Positions 2,913-43,946 of a stretch of DNA of 44,102 nt are shown here, piece by piece (the first letter of the stretch is position 1; every line of letters starts with the position of its first letter). The notes beneath the pieces were generated by a model, which worked only from the letters and a program-made list of their open reading frames with translations, made no database searches and was not told the origin of the DNA. A program made the position numbers and the translations under genes. The stretch is from a virus. Location of the stretch: the UHGV virus genome UHGV-0016039. One strand, 5' to 3'.

Positions 2913-3002
2913 CCGCTTAGGCGCAACCAAGTAGATTAGCAACCAAGCCGAACGGGGTGGCTTCCAATAACCCCGATACATGTGAAAATGAGGAATTGGA
3001 AA

Positions 3003-3791
3003 ATGGCTAAAGTCAACCTGAAAAATGTGCGCGTATGTTTCCTGAAAATTTGGGAACGTGATACCCCTAAACAGGATGGACAAAAACCGGCATACCGCGC
3101 CGTGATTCTTCTTGATAAAGAAGACCCGCAGGTGGACAAAGTGGAGGCGGCAGCGCGCGCAGTGCTCACCGACAAGCTGAAATCCGAGAAGAATGCCGAT
3201 AAGTGGATGGACCGCCACTACGCCCAGGATTCTAAGGAATGTGCAGTTCGCGACGGCGACGAGCGCGATGAAGTAACCGAAGAGTTCGAAGGCATGTTGT
3301 ACATCAACGCCAAATCGTTCAAACAGCCTAACATCCAAACGTCACTGGGCGAGAAGCAGACCGAGCAAGGTCTGACCGTAGACGGCGACGAGATCGAAGG
3401 CCAGGAGATCTACTCCGGTTGTTATTGCAATGTGTCCCTGGATATTTGGGCGTGGAACAATACCAACGGCAAGGGGCTCGGGGCCGGCTTGCTGGGTCTG
3501 CGATTCCGTGAAGACGGCGAAGCCTTCGGGGGTGGCGGGTCTTCATGTTCTGACGAAGACCTGGACAACGATGACGAAGACGAAAGCCCGCGTAAGTCCA
3601 AAAAGTCAAAACGTCGTGATGACGATGACGAAGACGACAAGCCGCGTAAGTCCAAAAAATCCAAGCGCAGCGATGACGATGACGACGACGACGAAGACGA
3701 AAAGCCTCGCAAACGTCGTAAACCACGCGATGACGAAGATGAGGACGACGAAGACGAAGACGAAGCACCACGCAAACGTCGCCGCCGTTAA
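3003..3791 (+). CDS. DUF2815-type phage ssDNA-binding-like protein with C-terminal D/E-rich and PRKSKK repeat tail
   Basis: ATG 3003 preceded by GAGGAA; N-terminal MAKVNLKNVRV..F motif; gene order DUF2800-DUF2815-PolA. Confidence 0.7.
   Translation: MAKVNLKNVRVCFLKIWERDTPKQDGQKPAYRAVILLDKEDPQVDKVEAAARAVLTDKLKSEKNADKWMDRHYAQDSKECAVRDGDERDEVTEEFEGMLYINAKSFKQPNIQTSLGEKQTEQGLTVDGDEIEGQEIYSGCYCNVSLDIWAWNNTNGKGLGAGLLGLRFREDGEAFGGGGSSCSDEDLDNDDEDESPRKSKKSKRRDDDDEDDKPRKSKKSKRSDDDDDDDEDEKPRKRRKPRDDEDEDDEDEDEAPRKRRRR
3556..3788 (+). repeat. in-frame charged tandem repeats (DDDDEDD-KPRKSKKSKR units) at C-terminus of SSB-like protein
   Basis: repeated gacga(t/c)ga.. and ccgcgtaagtccaaaaa units visible in DNA. 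Confidence 0.65.
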
Positions 3792-9584: not shown

Positions 9585-9827
9585 ATGAAATCATTATTTT
9601 TCGACTACGACGGCGACCTTCGATTTTGGGTGCTCCTCACCCTCATGATTGCCGGCTGTATTGGCATACCTTCGACGGCTATTTACTACACGGAACGCTA
9701 CGAATGCAAGACCGTGTATGCCGAGCAAACCGGACGCAATACCCAATGGCGCTATGGTGTCTGCTGGGTGGAGATGAACGGTAAATTTATCCCACGCAAT
9801 GAAATCCGCACCACGGAGATTAAATAA
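9585..9827 (+). CDS. small membrane protein (80 aa, one TM helix)
   Basis: ATG 9585 preceded by GGAG; FWVLLTLMIAGCIGIPSTAIYY. Confidence 0.5.
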   Translation: MKSLFFDYDGDLRFWVLLTLMIAGCIGIPSTAIYYTERYECKTVYAEQTGRNTQWRYGVCWVEMNGKFIPRNEIRTTEIK

Positions 9828-19745: not shown

Positions 19746-20482
19746 TGCCATTCTGTGATATCCCACGGTAAATCTTTATGACGTACCCATTTAACCACAT
19801 TGTCGCGGAAAAATCCTGCCCGGAAGGGGATCACGCTCGACAGGCTGCCGTAGATATGGTGTAGTAGTTGGTTGCCCGGAAGGTAGATTCCGGCATGGTT
19901 AGGCACTGGCGCGCTAATCTGCATGATGACCATCGCCCCAGGCGTATTCTCCTCGCATTCCCTGAAGCCTGCACCGTACCAGTTATCCATGTACAGGTTC
20001 TCCCCAGTCTCCCACCAGTTGTACGGCACGCGGAAGTCTGGCAAATTTACTCCCTGCTTTTTGTGCCAGTCCATAACTAGGCCATAACAATCCGTAATTC
20101 CGAGAACAAATCGGCGGCCTACCAGCGGCGGGTCTTCCGGGTCGATCTCGATAAAGTCGCCATATTCGTTAGTGATGGTCCAGACGACGCCGCTGCCGTT
20201 GCAGCCGTTGACGTCACCCAATGACGGGGTTAACTCGCGCTGACCGGGGTGAGAGTGGACTACGCGCACAACGTCGCCCATATCCTCGGCATCCATCCAG
20301 TCCATATCACTAATCGTGAAAGCGTCTTTGCGTGAGCGCACGCCGGTCGGGTCTTCAAACACGTTAAGGCACGGGACGAATACTTGCTTACGGCCCACCA
20401 TGACAACCAGGCCGCAGGCTTCTTCCGGCAGACATGCCGCGACGTGTGCGGCGATATCGCTTTTAACCTTCTTCGTTAACAT
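19742..20482 (-). CDS. tail tip assembly protein, lambda K-like (MPN/JAMM plus NlpC/P60)
   Basis: HSHP JAMM-like motif and DCYG cysteine motif. Confidence 0.8.
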   Translation of the reverse strand: MLTKKVKSDIAAHVAACLPEEACGLVVMVGRKQVFVPCLNVFEDPTGVRSRKDAFTISDMDWMDAEDMGDVVRVVHSHPGQRELTPSLGDVNGCNGSGVVWTITNEYGDFIEIDPEDPPLVGRRFVLGITDCYGLVMDWHKKQGVNLPDFRVPYNWWETGENLYMDNWYGAGFRECEENTPGAMVIMQISAPVPNHAGIYLPGNQLLHHIYGSLSSVIPFRAGFFRDNVVKWVRHKDLPWDITEWQ

Positions 20483-21905: not shown

Positions 21906-24548
21906 TCATCGTTTGTAAAGTACACCACCCGGTTTCGTCGCTTTCACGATCTCGGCCTTCACCGCTTCGGTGATTTGCTTGCCGAACGCCTGCGCGGTAC
22001 GGGGGTCCGGCCCGCTGACACTGGTATCTGTTTTACCGGACCCCGTGTAAACGTTAGTCGTCACGACCATACCACCGCCTGCGCCAGACGCGGCAACACC
22101 CAGTTTCCCGTCCGGCCCGCGCTTCAGTGGCATGATGGCCTCGGGTCCAGCCTCGCCCATCAATCCCGCGCCCTTAGCGAACGCCTGGACGCCATAACTG
22201 AAAAAGGTAGGCTGACTTACCACTTTCCCCGAATAGGCCGCGAGATTGCCACCTGCGTACGCGCCGCCGTCCGCATTCTTAGTGAGGCCCGAGAAGATAG
22301 CGCCGAACAATCCGTTTTTGCCGCCGTCGCCACCGAAAGCGCTAACGATGGACTTGAATGCCTGCGATGTAGCCAGCTTGATTAATTCGCTCAGGATGGA
22401 CTTAACCATATCCTTTGCGTTCAGCTTGCCAGTCTCAAAAAACTCGTTCATCGTGTCCTGCATAGCGCTGAACGTGAATTTTGTGAGTGACGCCATCTGC
22501 GTATAGCCGTTACCCATTTCATCCACGCTATCCTTAAGCCCACGGCTGAATCCATCCCATAGTGAGGCGTTAGCACCGGTCTGTGCTTCCTGCACTTCGC
22601 GCAGTTTAGACACCGCCAGATCAATATCGGTATCACTAGCGCCCCCCCGCTTCAGGCGGTCAATTAGCTGCAATTCTTCACGCAGGTTTGCCGCTTCGCG
22701 AGTGGAAAGCGCATAGCCCGCCGCGGTGGCTTTTAGCTCGGCGTTCTGGTTCTTAACGAAGGCGTCGATCTGCGCGTGCGCCTTGACCTGCTTCTCTTTC
22801 GCGTCCAGCAATTTGGCTTCTTCGACGATCTGCTCGCGGACTTCCTTCACGCGCCCGAATTCGACCATCTGCTGCTTTTCTGCTGCCGTTAGTGCCCTTT
22901 CTTTGCTTGCTGCGATTAACTGCTCATTATCCGCGATCAGCTTGTTTAGGGCCGCTTGAGCGCGTTGCGTTCGGGTCTGCGTCGAGGCGTTGGCTTCGAT
23001 CTGCTTTCCAGACTCACGAAGCTGTGCCAGTTCGCTTCGCGCGACTTCCAGCATTTTCAGCCCGGCATCGACTCGAACAGCGGCGGCCTTCTTCGGGGCG
23101 GGGTCTTTGTAACGCTCGTTTACCTGCTTCACCGCCTCGGCAAGCTCTTTCTCGTCAATCACGCCGCGCTTATTAAGCAAATTGAGGCGGGCGATCTCGT
23201 CGGCGCGCCTCTTCGCGTTGGTTGCGTACTCCTTCTCAAACGCGGCGCGGTCGCGGGCGGTGCGGTTGGCCTCTTCGTTCGCCTTTGCTGCTTCTTCCGC
23301 GGCGCTGGCGTTGCCCCGCTCGGCACGGTTGCGCAGGGTGAGCGACGCCACCACCTTCTCCTGGGCGACCAGTTCGCTGTAAAGCATGTTAATACGCGCT
23401 TTCTGCGCTTCGGTCATCACACCACCGGCAGCGTTTACCGCTTTCATCTCGGCATAGTAAGCCGTGGTCAGTCGCTGCAATGATTCACGCGCTTTCATCT
23501 CTGACTCATTCGAGGACTGCGCGCGCCCAACATCCAGGATGGCGTCCCACATAGATTTAGCTGCCGATGTGACGACGTTCATCGAACGCTCAAGCGTACC
23601 CATGTTGGACTTAATATCGTTGGTCATAGTGGTAAACGACGCCGCGGCTGTTTTGTTAGCCAGCGCCACCGCTTCGGTTTCGCGACCCATATCCACAAGC
23701 GACTGTACCTGCTGGATCTGCGCTTCGTTTACGACGTGATACTTATCCGCCAATGCCCGTAAGCCGCCTACTGGGTCGGTTGACAGCTTCGCCACCGCCG
23801 CGACCACATCCTCGATCGGCTGGCTGGACACCTTCGCGAAGTCATTAACTACCTTCGCCAGTGCGCCGAAGTCACCACCCGCTTTCACACCCGCCGCCGC
23901 CAGCGCCTGGATTGTGTCACGCGTCTTGCGGAATGATCCGCCCATGCGCTCGGCGTTCTCGGATAGCACCAGGATCTGGTTTGCAGTTAGGCCTGAAATG
24001 TTACCTGACAGCGCCAGCGTCTTGTTAAGCGCTGCGACTTGGTTCTCTGCGCGGGACGTAATTGCTACGCCAACGCCTAACGTTGCCGTTACCGCGGCGA
24101 GGCCGATCCCTACGGGGCCGAGGAAGCCCGCAACAAAACGCAGCGTGTTTCCCAGTCCGCCAAACGCCCCAGTAAGCTGCGGTAACTGCTGAAGCATAAC
24201 GCGGTGTACCGGCATCCCCATCTCAAGCGTAACTGCGATATCCTGTAACTGGAATGCGGCGTTACGCGAGGCAAAGCCCAGGTTTTTAGTCGACATGCCT
24301 AACCTGTTGGCGAGTCGCTCCTGTTTTGTCATGCCGTCGGCGGCGCGCTGCGATTCAGTCGCTAACTTTTCCATTCCGCCAGCGGCGTCACTCGTCACCT
24401 TTTTGGATTTGCCGAGGGTGTCGTTTAATTTCTTAACCTTGTTTTCTGTGTTCTCGGATTTCTGTGCGAAGGAGTCCAGCACAGTATTTGCCGTTCTGAT
24501 TTGTGCAACATCCGCCTTTAGCGTGATGCCTGCTGCCTGATCTGCCAT
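21906..24548 (-). CDS. tail tape measure protein
   Basis: 880 aa, long helical/coiled-coil region, C-terminal Gly-rich segment; position after G/G-T. Confidence 0.85.
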   Translation of the reverse strand: MADQAAGITLKADVAQIRTANTVLDSFAQKSENTENKVKKLNDTLGKSKKVTSDAAGGMEKLATESQRAADGMTKQERLANRLGMSTKNLGFASRNAAFQLQDIAVTLEMGMPVHRVMLQQLPQLTGAFGGLGNTLRFVAGFLGPVGIGLAAVTATLGVGVAITSRAENQVAALNKTLALSGNISGLTANQILVLSENAERMGGSFRKTRDTIQALAAAGVKAGGDFGALAKVVNDFAKVSSQPIEDVVAAVAKLSTDPVGGLRALADKYHVVNEAQIQQVQSLVDMGRETEAVALANKTAAASFTTMTNDIKSNMGTLERSMNVVTSAAKSMWDAILDVGRAQSSNESEMKARESLQRLTTAYYAEMKAVNAAGGVMTEAQKARINMLYSELVAQEKVVASLTLRNRAERGNASAAEEAAKANEEANRTARDRAAFEKEYATNAKRRADEIARLNLLNKRGVIDEKELAEAVKQVNERYKDPAPKKAAAVRVDAGLKMLEVARSELAQLRESGKQIEANASTQTRTQRAQAALNKLIADNEQLIAASKERALTAAEKQQMVEFGRVKEVREQIVEEAKLLDAKEKQVKAHAQIDAFVKNQNAELKATAAGYALSTREAANLREELQLIDRLKRGGASDTDIDLAVSKLREVQEAQTGANASLWDGFSRGLKDSVDEMGNGYTQMASLTKFTFSAMQDTMNEFFETGKLNAKDMVKSILSELIKLATSQAFKSIVSAFGGDGGKNGLFGAIFSGLTKNADGGAYAGGNLAAYSGKVVSQPTFFSYGVQAFAKGAGLMGEAGPEAIMPLKRGPDGKLGVAASGAGGGMVVTTNVYTGSGKTDTSVSGPDPRTAQAFGKQITEAVKAEIVKATKPGGVLYKR

Positions 24549-24617
24549 TATGCAGTCCCCTTTTTTATGCAGTTGCCGATGGATATTGTATCAGCGATTT
24601 CAAAACAAACCTTATTC

Positions 24618-24932
24618 AGTCTCAGACGAGGGGGGCCATTGACCCCCGTCTAGTCTGAAAGACTGGGGTGCTGTCCCGCTGTCCCGATCGGCTAAAAACC
24701 GCGGCAGCACTGGCGGGGACGGGGTGCTGTCCCGCTTTGTCCCGCCCCTTGTTTGTCCCGCTTTTTGTCCCGCTTACTTTATGCAATAAAACTGCATATA
24801 TATGCGTATTTATGGGGTGAGACAAAACGGGGCGTCCCGCCTGTCCCGTTTTGAGTTTATGCAATGAAAGTGATTAGATATGCGGTTTTACAGAGGCGGG
24901 ACAAAACGGGACGTCCCGCCTGTCCCGCTTCA
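24618..24932. repeat. composite repeat copy A: GC hairpin, GTCCCGC/GCGGGAC iterons, TTTATGCA-N-TGCAT palindromes, internal ~75 bp tandem duplication
   Basis: near-identical to 41078-41260; at least 8 GTCCCGC copies. Confidence 0.7.
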
Positions 24933-25609
24933 TTATGCGGGGTTCTGCTGCGCCATTTCATCAAGCGCGATTCGTTCCATTAGCTTGATATCTTTAAACG
25001 CGCGCTGCTCGTTTTCGATACCGTGCATCTTAAATAACCACTCCAACACGCCGTAGTCGATGCCGTATGCGCCACCAAATCCGGTGCGCCATTGCGTGGC
25101 GCAATCTGTAAAGACTGCGACTACCTTCGCGTTGTCGGGCCATAGCGCAACAGGCGGACAAACATCTTCGGGGGCCGCACCCCATAAACTTGCTGCTAAA
25201 TCTTCGGAGGGGGGCGGCGGGCCATAAAAGCGTCGCGCCGCCTCAATTAGTTTTTTTCACGCAACCCCATCAGTTCGAGATAGTACGACGTGTGGAACAC
25301 ACCGAACGCGCGGGGATAGTTGACCACCAGGCGGCGGACGTTCTCCGCGTTAAATTCGTCCGGCAGATTCCAGCCTTCAGCGACGTGCATGATGGCCTCA
25401 ACCATAACGTTAAAGCCGTCCGGGTCATTGTCGTCATATTCCGATAGCTTTCGTTCGGTGTCCTGCATGGTCTGCGAAAACTCGTCGATAGGTCGGTGGC
25501 GGACGGTAAACGTCATCTTGCCCGGTTCGTTCTCGCCAGGGCGCGGGATCTCAATCGGCAGCTTAAAGGTTGGCTTAGGGTCAAGTGTGAAGAGTGGTGC
25601 TTTAGCCAT
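24933..25609 (-). CDS. tail assembly chaperone G-T fusion, product of predicted -1 ribosomal frameshift (105-aa T extension)
   Basis: slippery A_AAA_AAC at 25250-25256 in G frame; -1 frame open for 105 codons to TAA at 24933-24935. Confidence 0.6.
25247..25609 (-). CDS. tail assembly chaperone, lambda G-like (0-frame product)
   Basis: ATG 25609 (ORF track starts at GTG 25657); acidic protein between major tail and tape measure. Confidence 0.75.
   Translation of the reverse strand: MAKAPLFTLDPKPTFKLPIEIPRPGENEPGKMTFTVRHRPIDEFSQTMQDTERKLSEYDDNDPDGFNVMVEAIMHVAEGWNLPDEFNAENVRRLVVNYPRAFGVFHTSYYLELMGLREKN
25250..25256 (-). other. -1 programmed frameshift slippery heptamer A_AAA_AAC
   Basis: seven consecutive A (T on + strand at 25251-25257) ending G ORF as cgt gaa aaa aac taa. 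Confidence 0.65.
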
Positions 25610-40555: not shown

Positions 40556-40861
40556 TTATTTCGCAAGCTGGGCGAATAGTTCACGCTGGGCTTTAATCCG
40601 GGCGACGTTTGTCACTGCCGTCTCACCGATCCCGAAGCGATACGCCAGGCGCTCACTGGCAAAAGCCATCGCATATTCGCAGATTGCCACGCGCAGCGGT
40701 TCCAGTTCGTCCAGGCTGGCAAACATATCGTCGAACGCGTCCATGATTCCCTGCTGGGCCAGGATAACAACCTGGCGCGCGTCGTCTGCGTTGCCGTTTG
40801 TGTGCTTCGCTTCGTACAGCTTCGCCACCGCCATTGTGTAATTCCAGATTAATGCTCTCAT
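40556..40861 (-). CDS. hypothetical protein (101 aa)
   Basis: ATG 40861 preceded by GAGGAC; conserved promoter upstream. Confidence 0.55.
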   Translation of the reverse strand: MRALIWNYTMAVAKLYEAKHTNGNADDARQVVILAQQGIMDAFDDMFASLDELEPLRVAICEYAMAFASERLAYRFGIGETAVTNVARIKAQRELFAQLAK

Positions 40862-40889
40862 CGTTCAGTCCTCATATTGGTGTGCAACC

Positions 40890-40918
40890 AATATAGCCAG
40901 GTGCCAGGCTGAATGCAA
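40890..40918 (-). promoter_or_regulatory. sigma70-like promoter TTGCAT-17bp-TATATT (- strand) with overlapping palindrome ATTGGT-gtgc-AACCAAT
   Basis: rc of 40913-40918 is TTGCAT, rc of 40890-40895 is TATATT; palindrome 40875-40894. Confidence 0.5.
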
Positions 40919-41077
40919 CCAATATTAATCACGCGTATGAAAAAGTTGATCGCTATCTGCTGAATCTGCAAACCGCATTTTTCACTTTCCATTCTGCAAC
41001 TCGCATTGGTTGCCGAGTTCATCGACGACCGCAATTTGCATCATGTTGCCGTGCGGTATGCAATCCTGGATTTTATG

Positions 41078-41260
41078 CAGTCTCAGACGAGGGGGGTGCC
41101 AGACCCCCCGTCTAGTCTGAAAGACTGGGGTGCCGTCCCGCTGTCCCGCTCCTCTGGAAGCCGCGTCATCCGGGGCGGGACGGGGGTGCTGTCCCGCTTT
41201 GTCCCGCCTCTGGTCTGTCCCGCCTTTTGTCCCGCTTGTTTTATGCAGTAAAATTGCATA
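41078..41260. repeat. composite repeat copy B (hairpin, GTCCCGC iterons, ATGCA-N7-TGCAT palindrome)
   Basis: near-identical to 24618-24800 except for a 35-bp substituted core. Confidence 0.7.
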
Positions 41261-41341
41261 ACTATTCACTATATCCACACTACACGGCAACCAATGCGAC
41301 CGACTAAAAGCACTCAAAATGGCAACCAATGCGCGCAGAAT

Positions 41342-43606
41342 TTAGTCTTTTAAGTCGTCATCGGTCGCAGAAAGCGTGGTGGGTATATTCGTTTTGATGA
41401 CGATATTCGACGACCCATAGATGGCCCCGGTGTGTGGGTCTGTATAAAAGCCGAGTACGCCGCGCTCCACCATATCGTCGATTGCCTTCGTCGATGTGCC
41501 ACCTTTTGCCAATCCCGCCTGGCGGACAATTGCCGATTTACTGAATCCGGTATGGTCCGGGTTATCTTCCATCAGTTTTTCCAGCGCCGCATAAAGCACT
41601 TTCTCTTTTTCGTTGCGCGGGCCTGCGGCGTTCTCGTCCTTAACTGCTGCCTTGCCCGCGGACTTCGCCTGCTCAATGGCGAACGGTGCCAGGGCAACTG
41701 GTACGAGGTAGAGAGTCTCGTCGCGTGGCGTGGATGCGATTGGCTTGACGTCCCAACCGGCAACCACATCGCCGAAGTCCGGCCCGGTGCTGGTGGACTG
41801 GTGGGCTTCGAACGCTTCGGACTTGCGGAGATCCACCTTAACCTTGCACTTGAGCAGGACGAAGCCGCGTGGCGCTTGCTTGATGCCGTTACGTGCCTTT
41901 TCGTGATACAGGTTCAATTGGCCTGGTTGGTTGTCGTCCGGCTGTTCCAGGAAGAACGCGGAATCAACAGCACCATGAAGCGCGCCGGACCCGCGTGGCG
42001 TTCTGCTGCCGTTTGCACCTTTCGCCGGGTGGTGGATGACGCCCGCACTGCCGCCTGTATTTTCCGCAATGGCTTTCAGCGCTTTGACCACTTCACCCAT
42101 ATCGCTGGCGTTGTTCTCGTCAAACGGTTTAGCATCGGCGGACCGCAGCGCAACAGTCTGGTTGAGGGAGTCGAACGCCACCAGGCCCACCGGTTCGCCG
42201 TTAGCGGTGCGGTTGATGAAGCTGATAACTTCACGCAAGCCGGATTTGCTGGTGATATCCCAGCCGCGAGATTGCAGGTCGATAATGTGCAGCTTGTCCA
42301 GGTCGTGCTCATATTTGATCTGCAGTGCTTCCTTACGCTGGTTGGAGGCTTCGCCACCTTCCGCATCGAAATAGAAGTTGTGGCACTGGACGACCTTCGC
42401 CCCGCCAAACGGAATACCGGCAGATACTGACGCCATCTGGCCCAGCACGTAGAACGACTTGCCGATGTTCGACTCACCGGCGAGATACCAGGTCGATTTG
42501 AAGTTGACCAGGCCTTCGATGATCGGGTCGTGCTTACTGAACAGTGCGACCGGCTCGTTGTCCAGGTCTGCATCAGTACACACGCCGTACTCGTCGCCGT
42601 CGCCAACCGCATCAACGATATGTTCATAGCAGGATTCCACTTCCTCGTCGTCCAGTCCCGGAAGGATGGCGGCGATTTGCTTACGTGACATGTTGTGCGG
42701 TTCGACGTTCAGGTGGTCCGGGATCCCGATAAGACGTAGCGCCAGGTGCTGGTGTCTGTTCAGTTCGGAACAGCACTCGTTTCCGGTGTGCATACACTTG
42801 AAACGGATCTCGCCATCCTTGACCATGATAGCGGTGGACCCTTCGCCGCTGTGCAGGTGTTCGTTCGGGCACGGCACTTCATAGCCCCGACCGGACGACA
42901 GCGGTTCGAATCCTGCCTTGAAGCACCAATCCAGAATACCGTCCGCCACGCCGTCATCGCCCTGGGTCAGTTCGCGGCGGACTTCCTCTTTCTCAACTCC
43001 CAGCTTGTCCGCCAGGCGGAGCAGACGGCGGACGCGGGCGCGCTTGCCGTAGTGGCACTTAATAACAGACTGCTGGTGTGGCAGGTACATCAGGCGGTTT
43101 GTGTCTTTCGTGCAGTCGTCGAAGTCCACATCTGACAGGCCCAGTTGGTGTAATAGCGCATACTGGACACGCCCCAGGTCTTCAGCCGGTACAGGCTTGT
43201 CGGTCAACACCAGGAAGCGAGCGCAACGCGTTCCACCTTTCAGTGGGTGACGGTCGCCGGTTGTGGTGTGAAATACGTGTTCCAGACCCGAGTCAATGAA
43301 CGCCTTACGGCAGCGGCGTAGGGTGCGGGTGTCGGTACGGTCAATATCGAAGAACAGGATCGAGCGGTCCACCGCGCTGGTCTTGCGACGTAAGCCGTCA
43401 CTGGTATAAGCCACAATGCCATCGGCCTTACGCTTGCGGCGCGCATACTCCGCTTTATCTTCCGTCTTGTTGATATGCACCGAGGATATTTCTTTCGCAT
43501 CATTAATAAATTCGAAAAACTCATCAGTGGTCATCTGGAAGTTTTCCGCCCTGGCTTTTTCGCCTTTTTTAGCGGGTCTTGTTACTGCGAATTTAATTAA
43601 GCTCAT
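41342..43606 (-). CDS. DNA primase / RecA-like (DnaB/RepA-type) helicase fusion protein
   Basis: Walker A AGESNIGKS, Walker B-like VAFDSLNQ, Cys/His cluster, 754 aa. Confidence 0.8.
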   Translation of the reverse strand: MSLIKFAVTRPAKKGEKARAENFQMTTDEFFEFINDAKEISSVHINKTEDKAEYARRKRKADGIVAYTSDGLRRKTSAVDRSILFFDIDRTDTRTLRRCRKAFIDSGLEHVFHTTTGDRHPLKGGTRCARFLVLTDKPVPAEDLGRVQYALLHQLGLSDVDFDDCTKDTNRLMYLPHQQSVIKCHYGKRARVRRLLRLADKLGVEKEEVRRELTQGDDGVADGILDWCFKAGFEPLSSGRGYEVPCPNEHLHSGEGSTAIMVKDGEIRFKCMHTGNECCSELNRHQHLALRLIGIPDHLNVEPHNMSRKQIAAILPGLDDEEVESCYEHIVDAVGDGDEYGVCTDADLDNEPVALFSKHDPIIEGLVNFKSTWYLAGESNIGKSFYVLGQMASVSAGIPFGGAKVVQCHNFYFDAEGGEASNQRKEALQIKYEHDLDKLHIIDLQSRGWDITSKSGLREVISFINRTANGEPVGLVAFDSLNQTVALRSADAKPFDENNASDMGEVVKALKAIAENTGGSAGVIHHPAKGANGSRTPRGSGALHGAVDSAFFLEQPDDNQPGQLNLYHEKARNGIKQAPRGFVLLKCKVKVDLRKSEAFEAHQSTSTGPDFGDVVAGWDVKPIASTPRDETLYLVPVALAPFAIEQAKSAGKAAVKDENAAGPRNEKEKVLYAALEKLMEDNPDHTGFSKSAIVRQAGLAKGGTSTKAIDDMVERGVLGFYTDPHTGAIYGSSNIVIKTNIPTTLSATDDDLKD

Positions 43607-43616
43607 TGCCGTGGCC

Positions 43617-43946
43617 TTACTTAAAAGTTTTATTATTGCGTACCCAGGAGCGCACTGTGCTCTGATTAATTCCGGTCAACTCGGCAATCATCGCCCACGA
43701 TTTTCCCTCGTCGCGCAAACGTATAACCTGCTTTTTGTATTCTTCCATTTCTTCATTGTGCTTTTGCAGCTTGCTCGCGGCCGTGCCGTTGAGCAATTCC
43801 AGCCTGGCGCGTAATTCTTTCTCGACACTGCGCAGTCGTTCGATTTCAAATAACACCGCCCCCACGGCATCTGTATAAGCCCATGACCGGCTTGTCTCAC
43901 TGCAAACAGTCTTCGTTAACATTTCGATTGCGCCGTTTACATTCAT
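43617..43946 (-). CDS. HTH DNA-binding protein (109 aa)
   Basis: C-terminal HTH-like WAMIAELTGINQSTVRSWVRNN; ATG 43946 with GAGGG. Confidence 0.55.
   Translation of the reverse strand: MNVNGAIEMLTKTVCSETSRSWAYTDAVGAVLFEIERLRSVEKELRARLELLNGTAASKLQKHNEEMEEYKKQVIRLRDEGKSWAMIAELTGINQSTVRSWVRNNKTFK

Follow-up and report, generated by a model that had tools for sequence, protein, structure and literature searches.

In P4, octamer iterons are found at two cis sites that lie several kb apart, ori and crr. The oriV of the IncQ plasmid RSF1010 combines iterons with GC-rich and AT-rich segments and hairpin priming signals; its helicase is RepA, its iterons are read by the separate protein RepC, and its primase RepB' is separate as well. 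The P4 alpha protein is a multifunctional primase-helicase with a winged-helix domain that binds the origin repeats (PMC4234260). The Rep and PriRep proteins of Staphylococcus aureus pathogenicity islands (SaPIs) read short iterons with a C-terminal winged helix, and 6-12 iterons, arranged in two groups and partly in opposite orientation, are located directly downstream of the rep open reading frame (ORF); in PriRep5 of SaPI5, primase and helicase are present on one polypeptide (PMC9371898). In pRN1, the gene of a small DNA-binding (repressor) protein is followed by that of the primase-helicase ORF904, which has a winged helix, and then by an essential cis element within 166 bp past the stop codon, a ~100-nt stem-loop whose integrity is required and which also works when displaced (PMC4234260). 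Here we describe a composite repeat of iterons, an AT-rich palindrome and a hairpin in the virus genome UHGV-0016039 (44,102 nucleotides, analysed over its full length and referred to as the window). The repeat is present twice, once behind the gene of a primase-helicase (region B) and once in the tail operon (region A).

The reading that we favour, with a probability of about 0.55, is that the composite repeat is an iteron replication origin which is read by the phage primase-helicase acting as a self-loading initiator-helicase. The primase-helicase would bind the iterons via its C-terminal winged helix, the bound protein would open the adjacent AT-rich palindrome and/or extrude or use the hairpin, and it would then load itself and prime. 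Copy B, 106 nt past the helicase stop codon, would be the ancestral origin. Copy A would be a duplicate specific for Dhillonviruses, inserted between the tail chaperone and tape measure genes, and could be a second origin or an auxiliary cis site, for which P4 crr and SPP1 oriR are parallels. This reading draws on the anatomy and conservation of the repeat, on the linkage of the same layout to helicase genes across lineages, on the predicted winged-helix fold of the primase-helicase C-terminus and on the precedents of SaPI Rep, pRN1 and P4 alpha, which have been characterised by experiment and in which the origin is located directly 3' of the initiator-helicase gene.

Anatomy and conservation of regions A and B

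The window is an essentially complete genome of a Dhillonvirus (HK578-like coliphage), and 158 phage records match it at 86-91% identity. Dhillonviruses are common coliphages which are used in phage-therapy work and in the BASEL reference collection. An earlier note, made from the letters of the window, had described a near-identical composite repeat in two places. A repeat search of the window against itself recovered the pair as direct repeats at 24643-24803 and 41105-41265 (161 nt, 84% identity, offset 16462) and at 24612-24647 and 41073-41108 (36 nt, 83% identity, offset 16461); the change of 1 nt in offset between the two segments is located in the hairpin loop. The repeat is thus real, and near-identical was too strong a term: the flanking modules are ~86-100% identical and the centre ~62%, and the coordinates on the A side were shifted by 1-2 nt (the counterparts of 41078 and 41260 are 24617 and 24798). 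The GTCCCGC spacing, the G/C hairpin and the TTATGCA..TGCATAA palindrome are indeed common to both copies, and the substituted centre of ~35 bp is copy-specific, as the note had stated. GTCCCGC occurs 20 times in the window, compared to 8.2 expected, and 16 of these 20 sites are inside regions A and B, where the spacing is equal (10, 16 and 12 between the four sites on the right, 8 between the two on the left). The window has two separate iteron clusters, 16.5 kb apart. A 216-nt element was found in 159 phage records in GenBank, nearly all of which have it in exactly two places, and neither the repeats of the window nor these 159 records show signs of a spread to other places. A third copy in a few records was rejected as an artefact, those records being linearised inside region A.

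Both sites are already present in the GenBank record of Sodalis phage SO-1 as the repeat_region features 'region A', between tail chaperone gp16 and tape measure gp17, and 'region B', between helicase-primase gp48 and gp49, with the remark 'direct, inverted and palindromic repeat sequences; sequence similarity with region A/B'. Since that record annotates both regions, the observation of the repeat is not new. No discussion of these regions, of Dhillonvirus replication or of how Dhillonviruses start it was found in the literature, Dhillonvirus genome papers included, and a literature search for the iteron motif returned primer coincidences only.

Region B (40862..41341, minus strand) is the whole noncoding gap between the stop codon of the primase-helicase gene and the next gene in the ORF list (ATG at 40861) and corresponds to region B of SO-1. 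Along the minus strand, the core consists of an AT-rich palindrome, four direct iterons, an inverted iteron, a copy-specific spacer, two iterons and a hairpin. The palindrome TTATGCA-N7-TGCATAA (41241..41261) is 65% AT, compared to 45.5% for the genome, and is a candidate unwinding element. The iteron is 8 bp long, (A/G)CGGGACA, with CGGGACA as its core. The four direct iterons GCGGGACA are located on the minus strand at 41190-97, 41200-07, 41216-23 and 41228-35 (span 41190..41235), and the first of them (41235-41228) starts 106 nt past the primase-helicase stop codon at 41342. The copy-specific centre (41150..41183) holds the inverted iteron GCGGGAC on the plus strand at 41175-41181, which forms a forward/reverse pair with the fourth iteron; in divergent members this pair abuts, GCGGGAC being directly followed by GTCCCGC. 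Two further direct iterons lie on the minus strand at 41135..41149 (GTCCCGC on the plus strand at 41135-41 and 41143-49). The hairpin (41078..41127), 215-264 nt past the helicase stop codon, is an imperfect palindrome of ~50 nt with CAGTCT/AGACT arms around G6-loop-C6 and is flanked by CTGCATAAAA and AGTCTGAAAG. It folds on either strand, and its DNA fold of -15.1 kcal/mol (z -3.25) was matched in stability by none of 200 shuffled sequences. Direct repeats of TGCATAAA bound both ends of the core, and AT-rich peaks flank the iteron arrays.

Region A (24549..24934, minus strand) is a noncoding gap of 386 bp between the frameshift extension of the tail assembly chaperone gene (stop at ~24933-24935) and the tape measure protein gene (21906..24548, minus strand, ATG at 24548; Pfam TMP_2, E 7e-43), which is directly downstream. 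It is absent in Guernseyvirinae relatives, in which the chaperone and tape measure genes abut. The A core (24617..24803, minus strand) contains the hairpin (24617-24665), two iterons (24672-24687), an A-type centre (24688-24720) that holds a degenerate inverted iteron, four iterons (24728-24773) and the palindrome (24779-24799). Region A is longer than the earlier note had it: an A-specific extension (24817..24928) adds forward and inverted iteron clusters at 24895-24928 and 24817-24849 with an AT-rich stretch of ~45 bp between them. With these extra forward/reverse clusters flanking AT-rich stretches, A resembles an origin, if anything, more closely than B does.

The conservation of the repeat was analysed in an alignment that comprised 30 copies, taken from more than 14 phages. 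The CGGGACA cores, their spacing, TGCATAAA, the mini-palindrome AGTCTTTCAGACT and the G/C stems are invariant in all 30 copies; the hairpin loop varies freely, and the spacer is either of the A-type or of the B-type. Copies A and B of the same genome are 86.6% identical and copies A and B of different genomes 85.5% (permutation p = 0.16), and identity is 88% among A copies and 90% among B copies. For the centres, identity is 62% between A and B, 85% among B orthologs and 88% among A orthologs. Because the identity of A and B within a genome is no higher than between genomes and the centres are copy-specific, A and B are old paralogs, each under purifying selection and without recombinational homogenisation. 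The same identities rule out concerted evolution of A and B and, together with the copy-specific centres, argue against the suggestion that the pair is a site for recombination or rearrangement.

The arms of the B palindrome are intact in 19/19 distinct B copies. Its interior reads ATAAAAC in 10 copies, the exact reverse complement GTTTTAT in 4 and ATTTTAC in this window; such a flip/flop of the palindrome interior (for example in L010, L011, L044 and L047) is the pattern expected from hairpin-mediated template switching. In most A copies the left arm of the palindrome is decayed. TTATGCA or TGCATAA is found 16 times in the window (4 expected), with seven exact sites in regions A and B. Sites of this family, located at 24548-24571, 24612-24618, 24779-24799, 24857-24863, 41073-41079 and 41241-41261, bound each core and recur beside the start codon of the tape measure gene; a degenerate eighth site, TTATTCA (24612), is the left edge of the A core, and no known host-factor consensus matches these sites. 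Small ORFs over the elements were rejected as genes, as they match no protein or PHROG family and their frames are broken by 1-nt indels between copies.

Two observations concern the database records. Many deposited genomes, among them those of Maverick, CS16, HH3, PTXU06, WFI, Zar3M, BMA1 and Pandora71, are linearised inside or within ~100 bp of A or B, probably because assemblers break at the repeat. The records MG065648.1, OQ221563.1 and OQ291023.1, labelled Campylobacter phage A144, Acinetobacter phage NJ01 and Salmonella phage Kenya-K19, contain the element at 91-95% identity to a coliphage, and their host labels may reflect contamination or misassignment.

The primase-helicase and the same layout in other phages

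The primase-helicase gene (41342..43606, minus strand) encodes a protein of 754 aa with an AAA_25 RecA-type core (aa 357-531; PF13481, E 2.4e-19; PHROG 3228 'replicative helicase-primase'), a C-terminal winged helix, predicted at ~aa 666-737, and an acidic tail. AAA_25 was the only Pfam match of the protein, with no Toprim, D5_N or SF3 families detected, and no solved structure or NCBIfam family matching it by sequence was found. Some of its homologs are named 'helicase RepA family protein' or 'RecA-family ATPase' in the source databases, and some phage records annotate the counterpart as 'replicative DNA helicase repA'. The C-terminal ~90 residues have a conserved helix-helix-helix-wing pattern that is followed by the acidic tail. 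An AlphaFold2 model of aa 586-754, based on a 20-sequence alignment, predicts H81-96, H105-112, H118-130, E133-135 and E150-152 with a pLDDT of 81-89, and the top matches of a Foldseek search against the PDB were all winged-helix DNA binders (the MarR family including the MepR-DNA complex, histone H1, RIO2 and the ORC winged helix). Lineages with different iterons also differ in the putative recognition helix.

Two side observations on the C-terminus were made. The conserved acidic tail (41345-41365) reads ..DDDLKD, and ..DEDLE(N/D) in homologs, and is reminiscent of T7 gp4, whose acidic C-terminal tail contacts DNA polymerase. A 'repeat_region' in phage bob (L001, 3012-3165) was considered as a related element and rejected, as it is a perfect tandem duplication of 77 bp without relation to the repeat, located in that part of the helicase gene which encodes the predicted winged helix. 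With a length not divisible by three, the duplication would put the gene out of frame; it may be either a genuine variant or an artefact of assembly.

IMG/VR was scanned for three closely spaced copies of GCGGGACA, and at least 120 stretches matched, most of them not from Dhillonviruses. In a screen of all ORFs, homologs of the primase-helicase were found in 13 non-Dhillonvirus array loci, compared to at most 3 loci for each of the other window proteins. A search with the helicase only, at a looser threshold, identified 14 array loci with 23-31% identity over the helicase core. The array starts ~0-120 bp past the helicase stop codon on the same strand in 9-10 of these 14 loci and lies within the last 300 nt of the ORF in 3 more; by a simple binomial estimate, the probability of this linkage arising by chance is ~1e-15. 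In the distant loci, 3-5 iterons form a direct array, which is followed by a spacer of 30-60 bp, 1-2 iterons, a hairpin and, usually, inverted iterons; the hairpin occupies the same place with a different sequence in every lineage. As the whole layout is shared and the hairpins are lineage-specific, the structure is kept while the sequence turns over.

A closer relative, Enterobacter phage phiEap-2, belongs to a different subfamily (Guernseyvirinae), and its helicase is 43% identical. A single homologous composite is present in it, immediately past the stop codon of the helicase gene. The parts of this composite are GAATAGTTATGCAG.., CGGACAA iterons in seven copies, a forward/reverse pair whose members abut, a spacer that resembles the Dhillonvirus A-type centre, TAGTCTTAGCAGACT, a hairpin in which the stem is compensated (GGGGGTGG/CCCACCC), and AGACTGCATAA. 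This cluster is the only one in phiEap-2, and the chaperone and tape measure genes abut. The phiEap-2 record is linearised within its post-helicase gap. Other orthologs have lineage-specific repeats of 8-9-mers past the helicase stop codon, namely 4 x TTCCGCACA in Serratia phage Tsm2 (L129), 6 x ACTCGCAA in L134 and 5 x GCTGCCAAC in L137. The phiEap-2 composite and the lineage-specific repeats at the same place indicate that the post-helicase site (B) is ancestral and region A a Dhillonvirus-specific duplicate. Because relatives carry one copy, the pair itself is a Dhillonvirus-specific duplication, and the paired functional site that the earlier note had suggested is not general. In Tsm2, TTCCGCACA is present in two inverted pairs at 9591-9649, and one more inverted pair is located at 20383-20411 in an intergenic gap of the late region, ~10.8 kb away, so a second distant site may not be unique to Dhillonviruses. 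The earlier note had linked copy B to an origin on account of the adjoining primase-helicase gene; this proposal gains comparative support from the layout found 3' of helicase homologs in the 14 unrelated contigs and phiEap-2 and from the predicted C-terminal winged helix.

The same 8-mer was also found in arrays with an 11-bp period inside lambda-O-like or DnaD-like initiator genes at 29 loci with a G+C content of 41-72%, including L013, L015-L017, L019, L023, L025, L028, L031, L038, L040, L051, L058, L061, L075, L076, L083, L112, L123, L128 and others. In these genes, 3-5 copies are present in the linker after a conserved N-terminal domain ending in ..ITICNYDEYQ, and a second tandem repeat follows; this is the arrangement of lambda, whose ori is contained in gene O. 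GCGGGACA inside O-like initiator genes represents an independent replication-origin context. A hidden Markov model of the O-like N-domain had no match in the window ORFs (best E 0.055) or in the array-linked helicases. A wider idea, which is tentative and which we hold to be rather doubtful, is that GCGGGACA array, spacer and hairpin form a widespread undescribed class of phage origins read by self-loading RecA-type (AAA_25) primase-helicases. The 8-mer shared with O-like initiators would then imply a portable origin-reader module, and Dhillonviruses would be a two-origin variant whose second origin, in the tail operon, possibly links replication to the dosage or expression of late genes.

Directly upstream of the primase-helicase gene is the gene of a 109-aa helix-turn-helix (HTH) protein (43617..43946, minus strand; Pfam HTH_23/Sigma70_r4_2). 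The curated HK578 record has divergent sigma70 early promoters upstream of this gene pair. The HTH protein is unlikely to be the iteron reader; no homolog was found in phiEap-2, which has the composite, or in the 14 distant array loci.

Points against an origin and alternative explanations

Several results weigh against the origin reading. GC skew has no inflection at A or B and follows gene orientation only, and no DnaA boxes (TTWTNCACA) or integration host factor (IHF) consensus sites were found in region A or B. SaPI origins have an AT-rich centre, whereas the segment that separates the iteron groups here is GC-rich (23-35% AT), and the Dhillonvirus core has no inverted iterons past its hairpin, unlike most distant loci. 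With regard to the protein, the Foldseek E-values are weak (0.015-0.5), the AlphaFold2 model has an overall pLDDT of 68, and T7 gp4 and other primase-helicases of the RecA-type (SF4-like) are not known to bind origins as initiators. Comparisons with hhalign of the Dhillonvirus helicase C-termini with the distant array-linked ones, and with the O-like domain, were not significant, and homology of the DNA-binding modules is therefore not claimed; the O-like initiators which share GCGGGACA have no detectable homology to the helicases which share it. In some helicase orthologs, those of K1ind1, Ent2 and L136, only a terminator is found past the helicase stop codon. Finally, an origin inside the tail operon, as copy A would be, has no obvious rationale.

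The alternative that survives best, though we regard it as unlikely, is a role of the repeat in transcription control. The arrays would bind a phage regulator (possibly the helicase or the 109-aa HTH protein) and, together with the hairpin, would insulate, pause, terminate or restart transcription where one rightward gene block meets the next (the blocks being helicase, lysis-head-tail tube and tape measure-tail tip), thereby timing late expression. In line with this, both copies are co-oriented within one long block of minus-strand genes and each lies just upstream of a gene cluster. A conserved sigma70-like promoter (40890..40918, minus strand; TTGCAT at 40918-40913, N17, TATATT at 40895-40890) is present after B, outside the shared repeat, and would drive the downstream genes; it is overlapped by two ATTGGTTGCA motifs, is conserved across 12 genomes and is below the threshold of the promoter scan. 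After A, there is an extended -10-like TGATACAAT. Furthermore, curators placed a rho-independent terminator at the first of the region A iteron clusters in HK578 and a terminator on the B hairpin in CS16. The shared core, however, contains no consensus promoter or U-tract terminator. A scan for intrinsic terminators found none on the core hairpin, which has no T/U run, on either strand, and matches to promoters and terminators were no more numerous than in shuffled sequence, with none on the coding strand within the core. The core holds a single promoter-like match (9/12, plus strand, 41227-41254); this match is not above shuffle expectation, and its -10 falls inside the palindrome, in the interior segment that other phages have inverted. 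A core promoter was rejected for these reasons. The distance from the core to the nearest promoter differs between B (~165 bp) and A (~30 bp), and the core is therefore not a fixed promoter element. A known structured RNA, such as HK022 put, a riboswitch or an sRNA, was rejected as well, since Rfam covariance models gave no match at E <= 1 in regions A and B on both strands. In unrelated phages, moreover, the layout tracks the helicase gene and not the late operons.

Motifs related to promoters are also found next to the core of B. Two CGCATTGGTTGCC motifs (41287..41330, minus strand) lie upstream of the core and a third, inverted, at 41005-41013; this motif is conserved in the genus and is a variant of the motif in the -35 region of phage promoters. 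The latter, ATTGGTTGC(A), occurs 14 times in the window compared to ~0.3 expected, at 35(-), 6562, 9504, 9521, 11420(-), 14433, 30498, 30511, 40351, 40884(-), 40915(-), 41005, 41287(-) and 41322(-). It forms the -35 region of a family of sigma70-like promoters, examples of which are TTGCAT-N16/17 followed by TATATT, TAATAC or TATAGT.

It is less probable still that the core is a selfish or mobile repeat, that is, a small non-autonomous element bounded by TGCATAAA which was copied from the post-helicase site, with copy A having no function for the phage. The presence of TGCATAAA at both core ends would fit such an element, as would the decayed left palindrome arm of most A copies and the location of copy A in an unusual noncoding insert of 386 bp between two genes that abut in relatives. 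The conservation of copy A speaks against it: copy A is present in essentially all ~159 genomes, it equals B in the invariance of its iterons, their spacing and the hairpin stems, its centre is 88% conserved among orthologs, and it has gained two additional iteron clusters. In addition, no genome-wide spread is apparent, the number of copies per genome being two only.

Sites for terminase and for centromere binding typically contain short motifs in several copies. A packaging site (pac, or binding of the small terminase), a partition site or a substrate for recombination between the direct copies is very improbable nevertheless, and nothing points to the partition or packaging function suggested in the earlier note: the GenBank records that begin or end in or near region A or B fit assembly breaks at the repeat, ~5 kb separate B from the terminase genes, it is the helicase gene and not terminase with which the layout is associated across phages, a virulent phage has no evident need for partition, and recombination between the direct copies would remove head and tail genes over 16.5 kb and is at odds with the lack of concerted evolution. 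No mapped termini for HK578-like phages are reported in Korf et al. 2019.

Elsewhere in the window, the plus-strand genes at 67-765 and 2982-3791 contain related tandem coding repeats (346-553 and 3554-3790; repeat families D1, D3, D4 and D6), which encode an Asp/Glu-rich part followed by Lys-Pro-x-Lys-Ser-Lys-Lys.

Comparison with described origin systems

If the origin reading is correct, the start of replication could be studied with a small, defined cis element (~190 bp) and a single protein. The principle of the self-loading initiator-helicase would then extend from SF3/AAA+ proteins (SaPI Rep, P4 alpha and pRN1 ORF904) to RecA-type primase-helicases, and an iteron array, spacer and hairpin 3' of a helicase gene would be a signature for predicting origins in uncultured phages. 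The copy in the tail operon would provide a natural test of a second origin-like site in a small lytic genome.

The likeness to lambda-type origins is that the identical 8-mer GCGGGACA is present in arrays with a period of 11 bp inside O-like or DnaD-like genes of 29 viral contigs. The window itself has no O-like domain in any ORF at a better E-value than 0.055, and its arrays are intergenic, after the helicase gene. The window resembles RSF1010 in the 'RepA' helicase names of some close homologs of the phage protein and in the combination of iterons with GC-rich and AT-rich parts and a hairpin, but no RepC-like protein was found in the window.

The similarity to pRN1 is in the order of the parts: in the window, the HTH gene is followed by the primase-helicase gene and then by a conserved hairpin of ~50 nt, 215-264 nt past the stop codon. 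pRN1 differs in having no iterons, an SF3 helicase and an archaeal host, and the phage hairpin is shorter and preceded by iteron arrays. With P4, the phage shares two separate iteron clusters per genome (A and B, 16.5 kb apart, with two copies in ~159 genomes). P4 alpha, however, consists of a Toprim primase and an SF3 helicase, neither of which was detected in the phage protein, and no sequence relation between the two proteins was detected; furthermore, the P4 origin is without a conserved hairpin module, and the requirement for both sites has been shown for P4.

With the SaPIs, the parallels include both the arrangement of the DNA and the predicted architecture of the protein. Seven iterons, split as 4+1 and 2, start 106 nt past the stop codon of a gene which encodes primase and helicase on one polypeptide, and iterons have the same position directly downstream of the helicase ORF in the 14 distant loci and in phiEap-2. 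A C-terminal winged helix is predicted by the AlphaFold2 model (pLDDT 81-89), with Foldseek E-values of only 0.015-0.5. SaPI origins have an AT-rich centre with at least two opposed iterons per side, whereas the centre in the phage is 23-35% AT and the core has one inverted iteron; the extension of region A does have forward and reverse clusters flanking an AT-rich stretch, as in SaPIs. The phage element further differs in that a hairpin follows the iterons, in that the iterons are 7-8 bp long (5-6 bp in SaPIs) and in that there are two copies per genome, at which binding and melting would take place. SaPI Rep is an AAA+ (SF3/MCM-like) protein and the phage protein is of the RecA-type AAA_25 family. 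As an origin, the phage element would thus work like those of SaPI Rep, P4 alpha and pRN1, and it is set apart from each of them by the class of its helicase.

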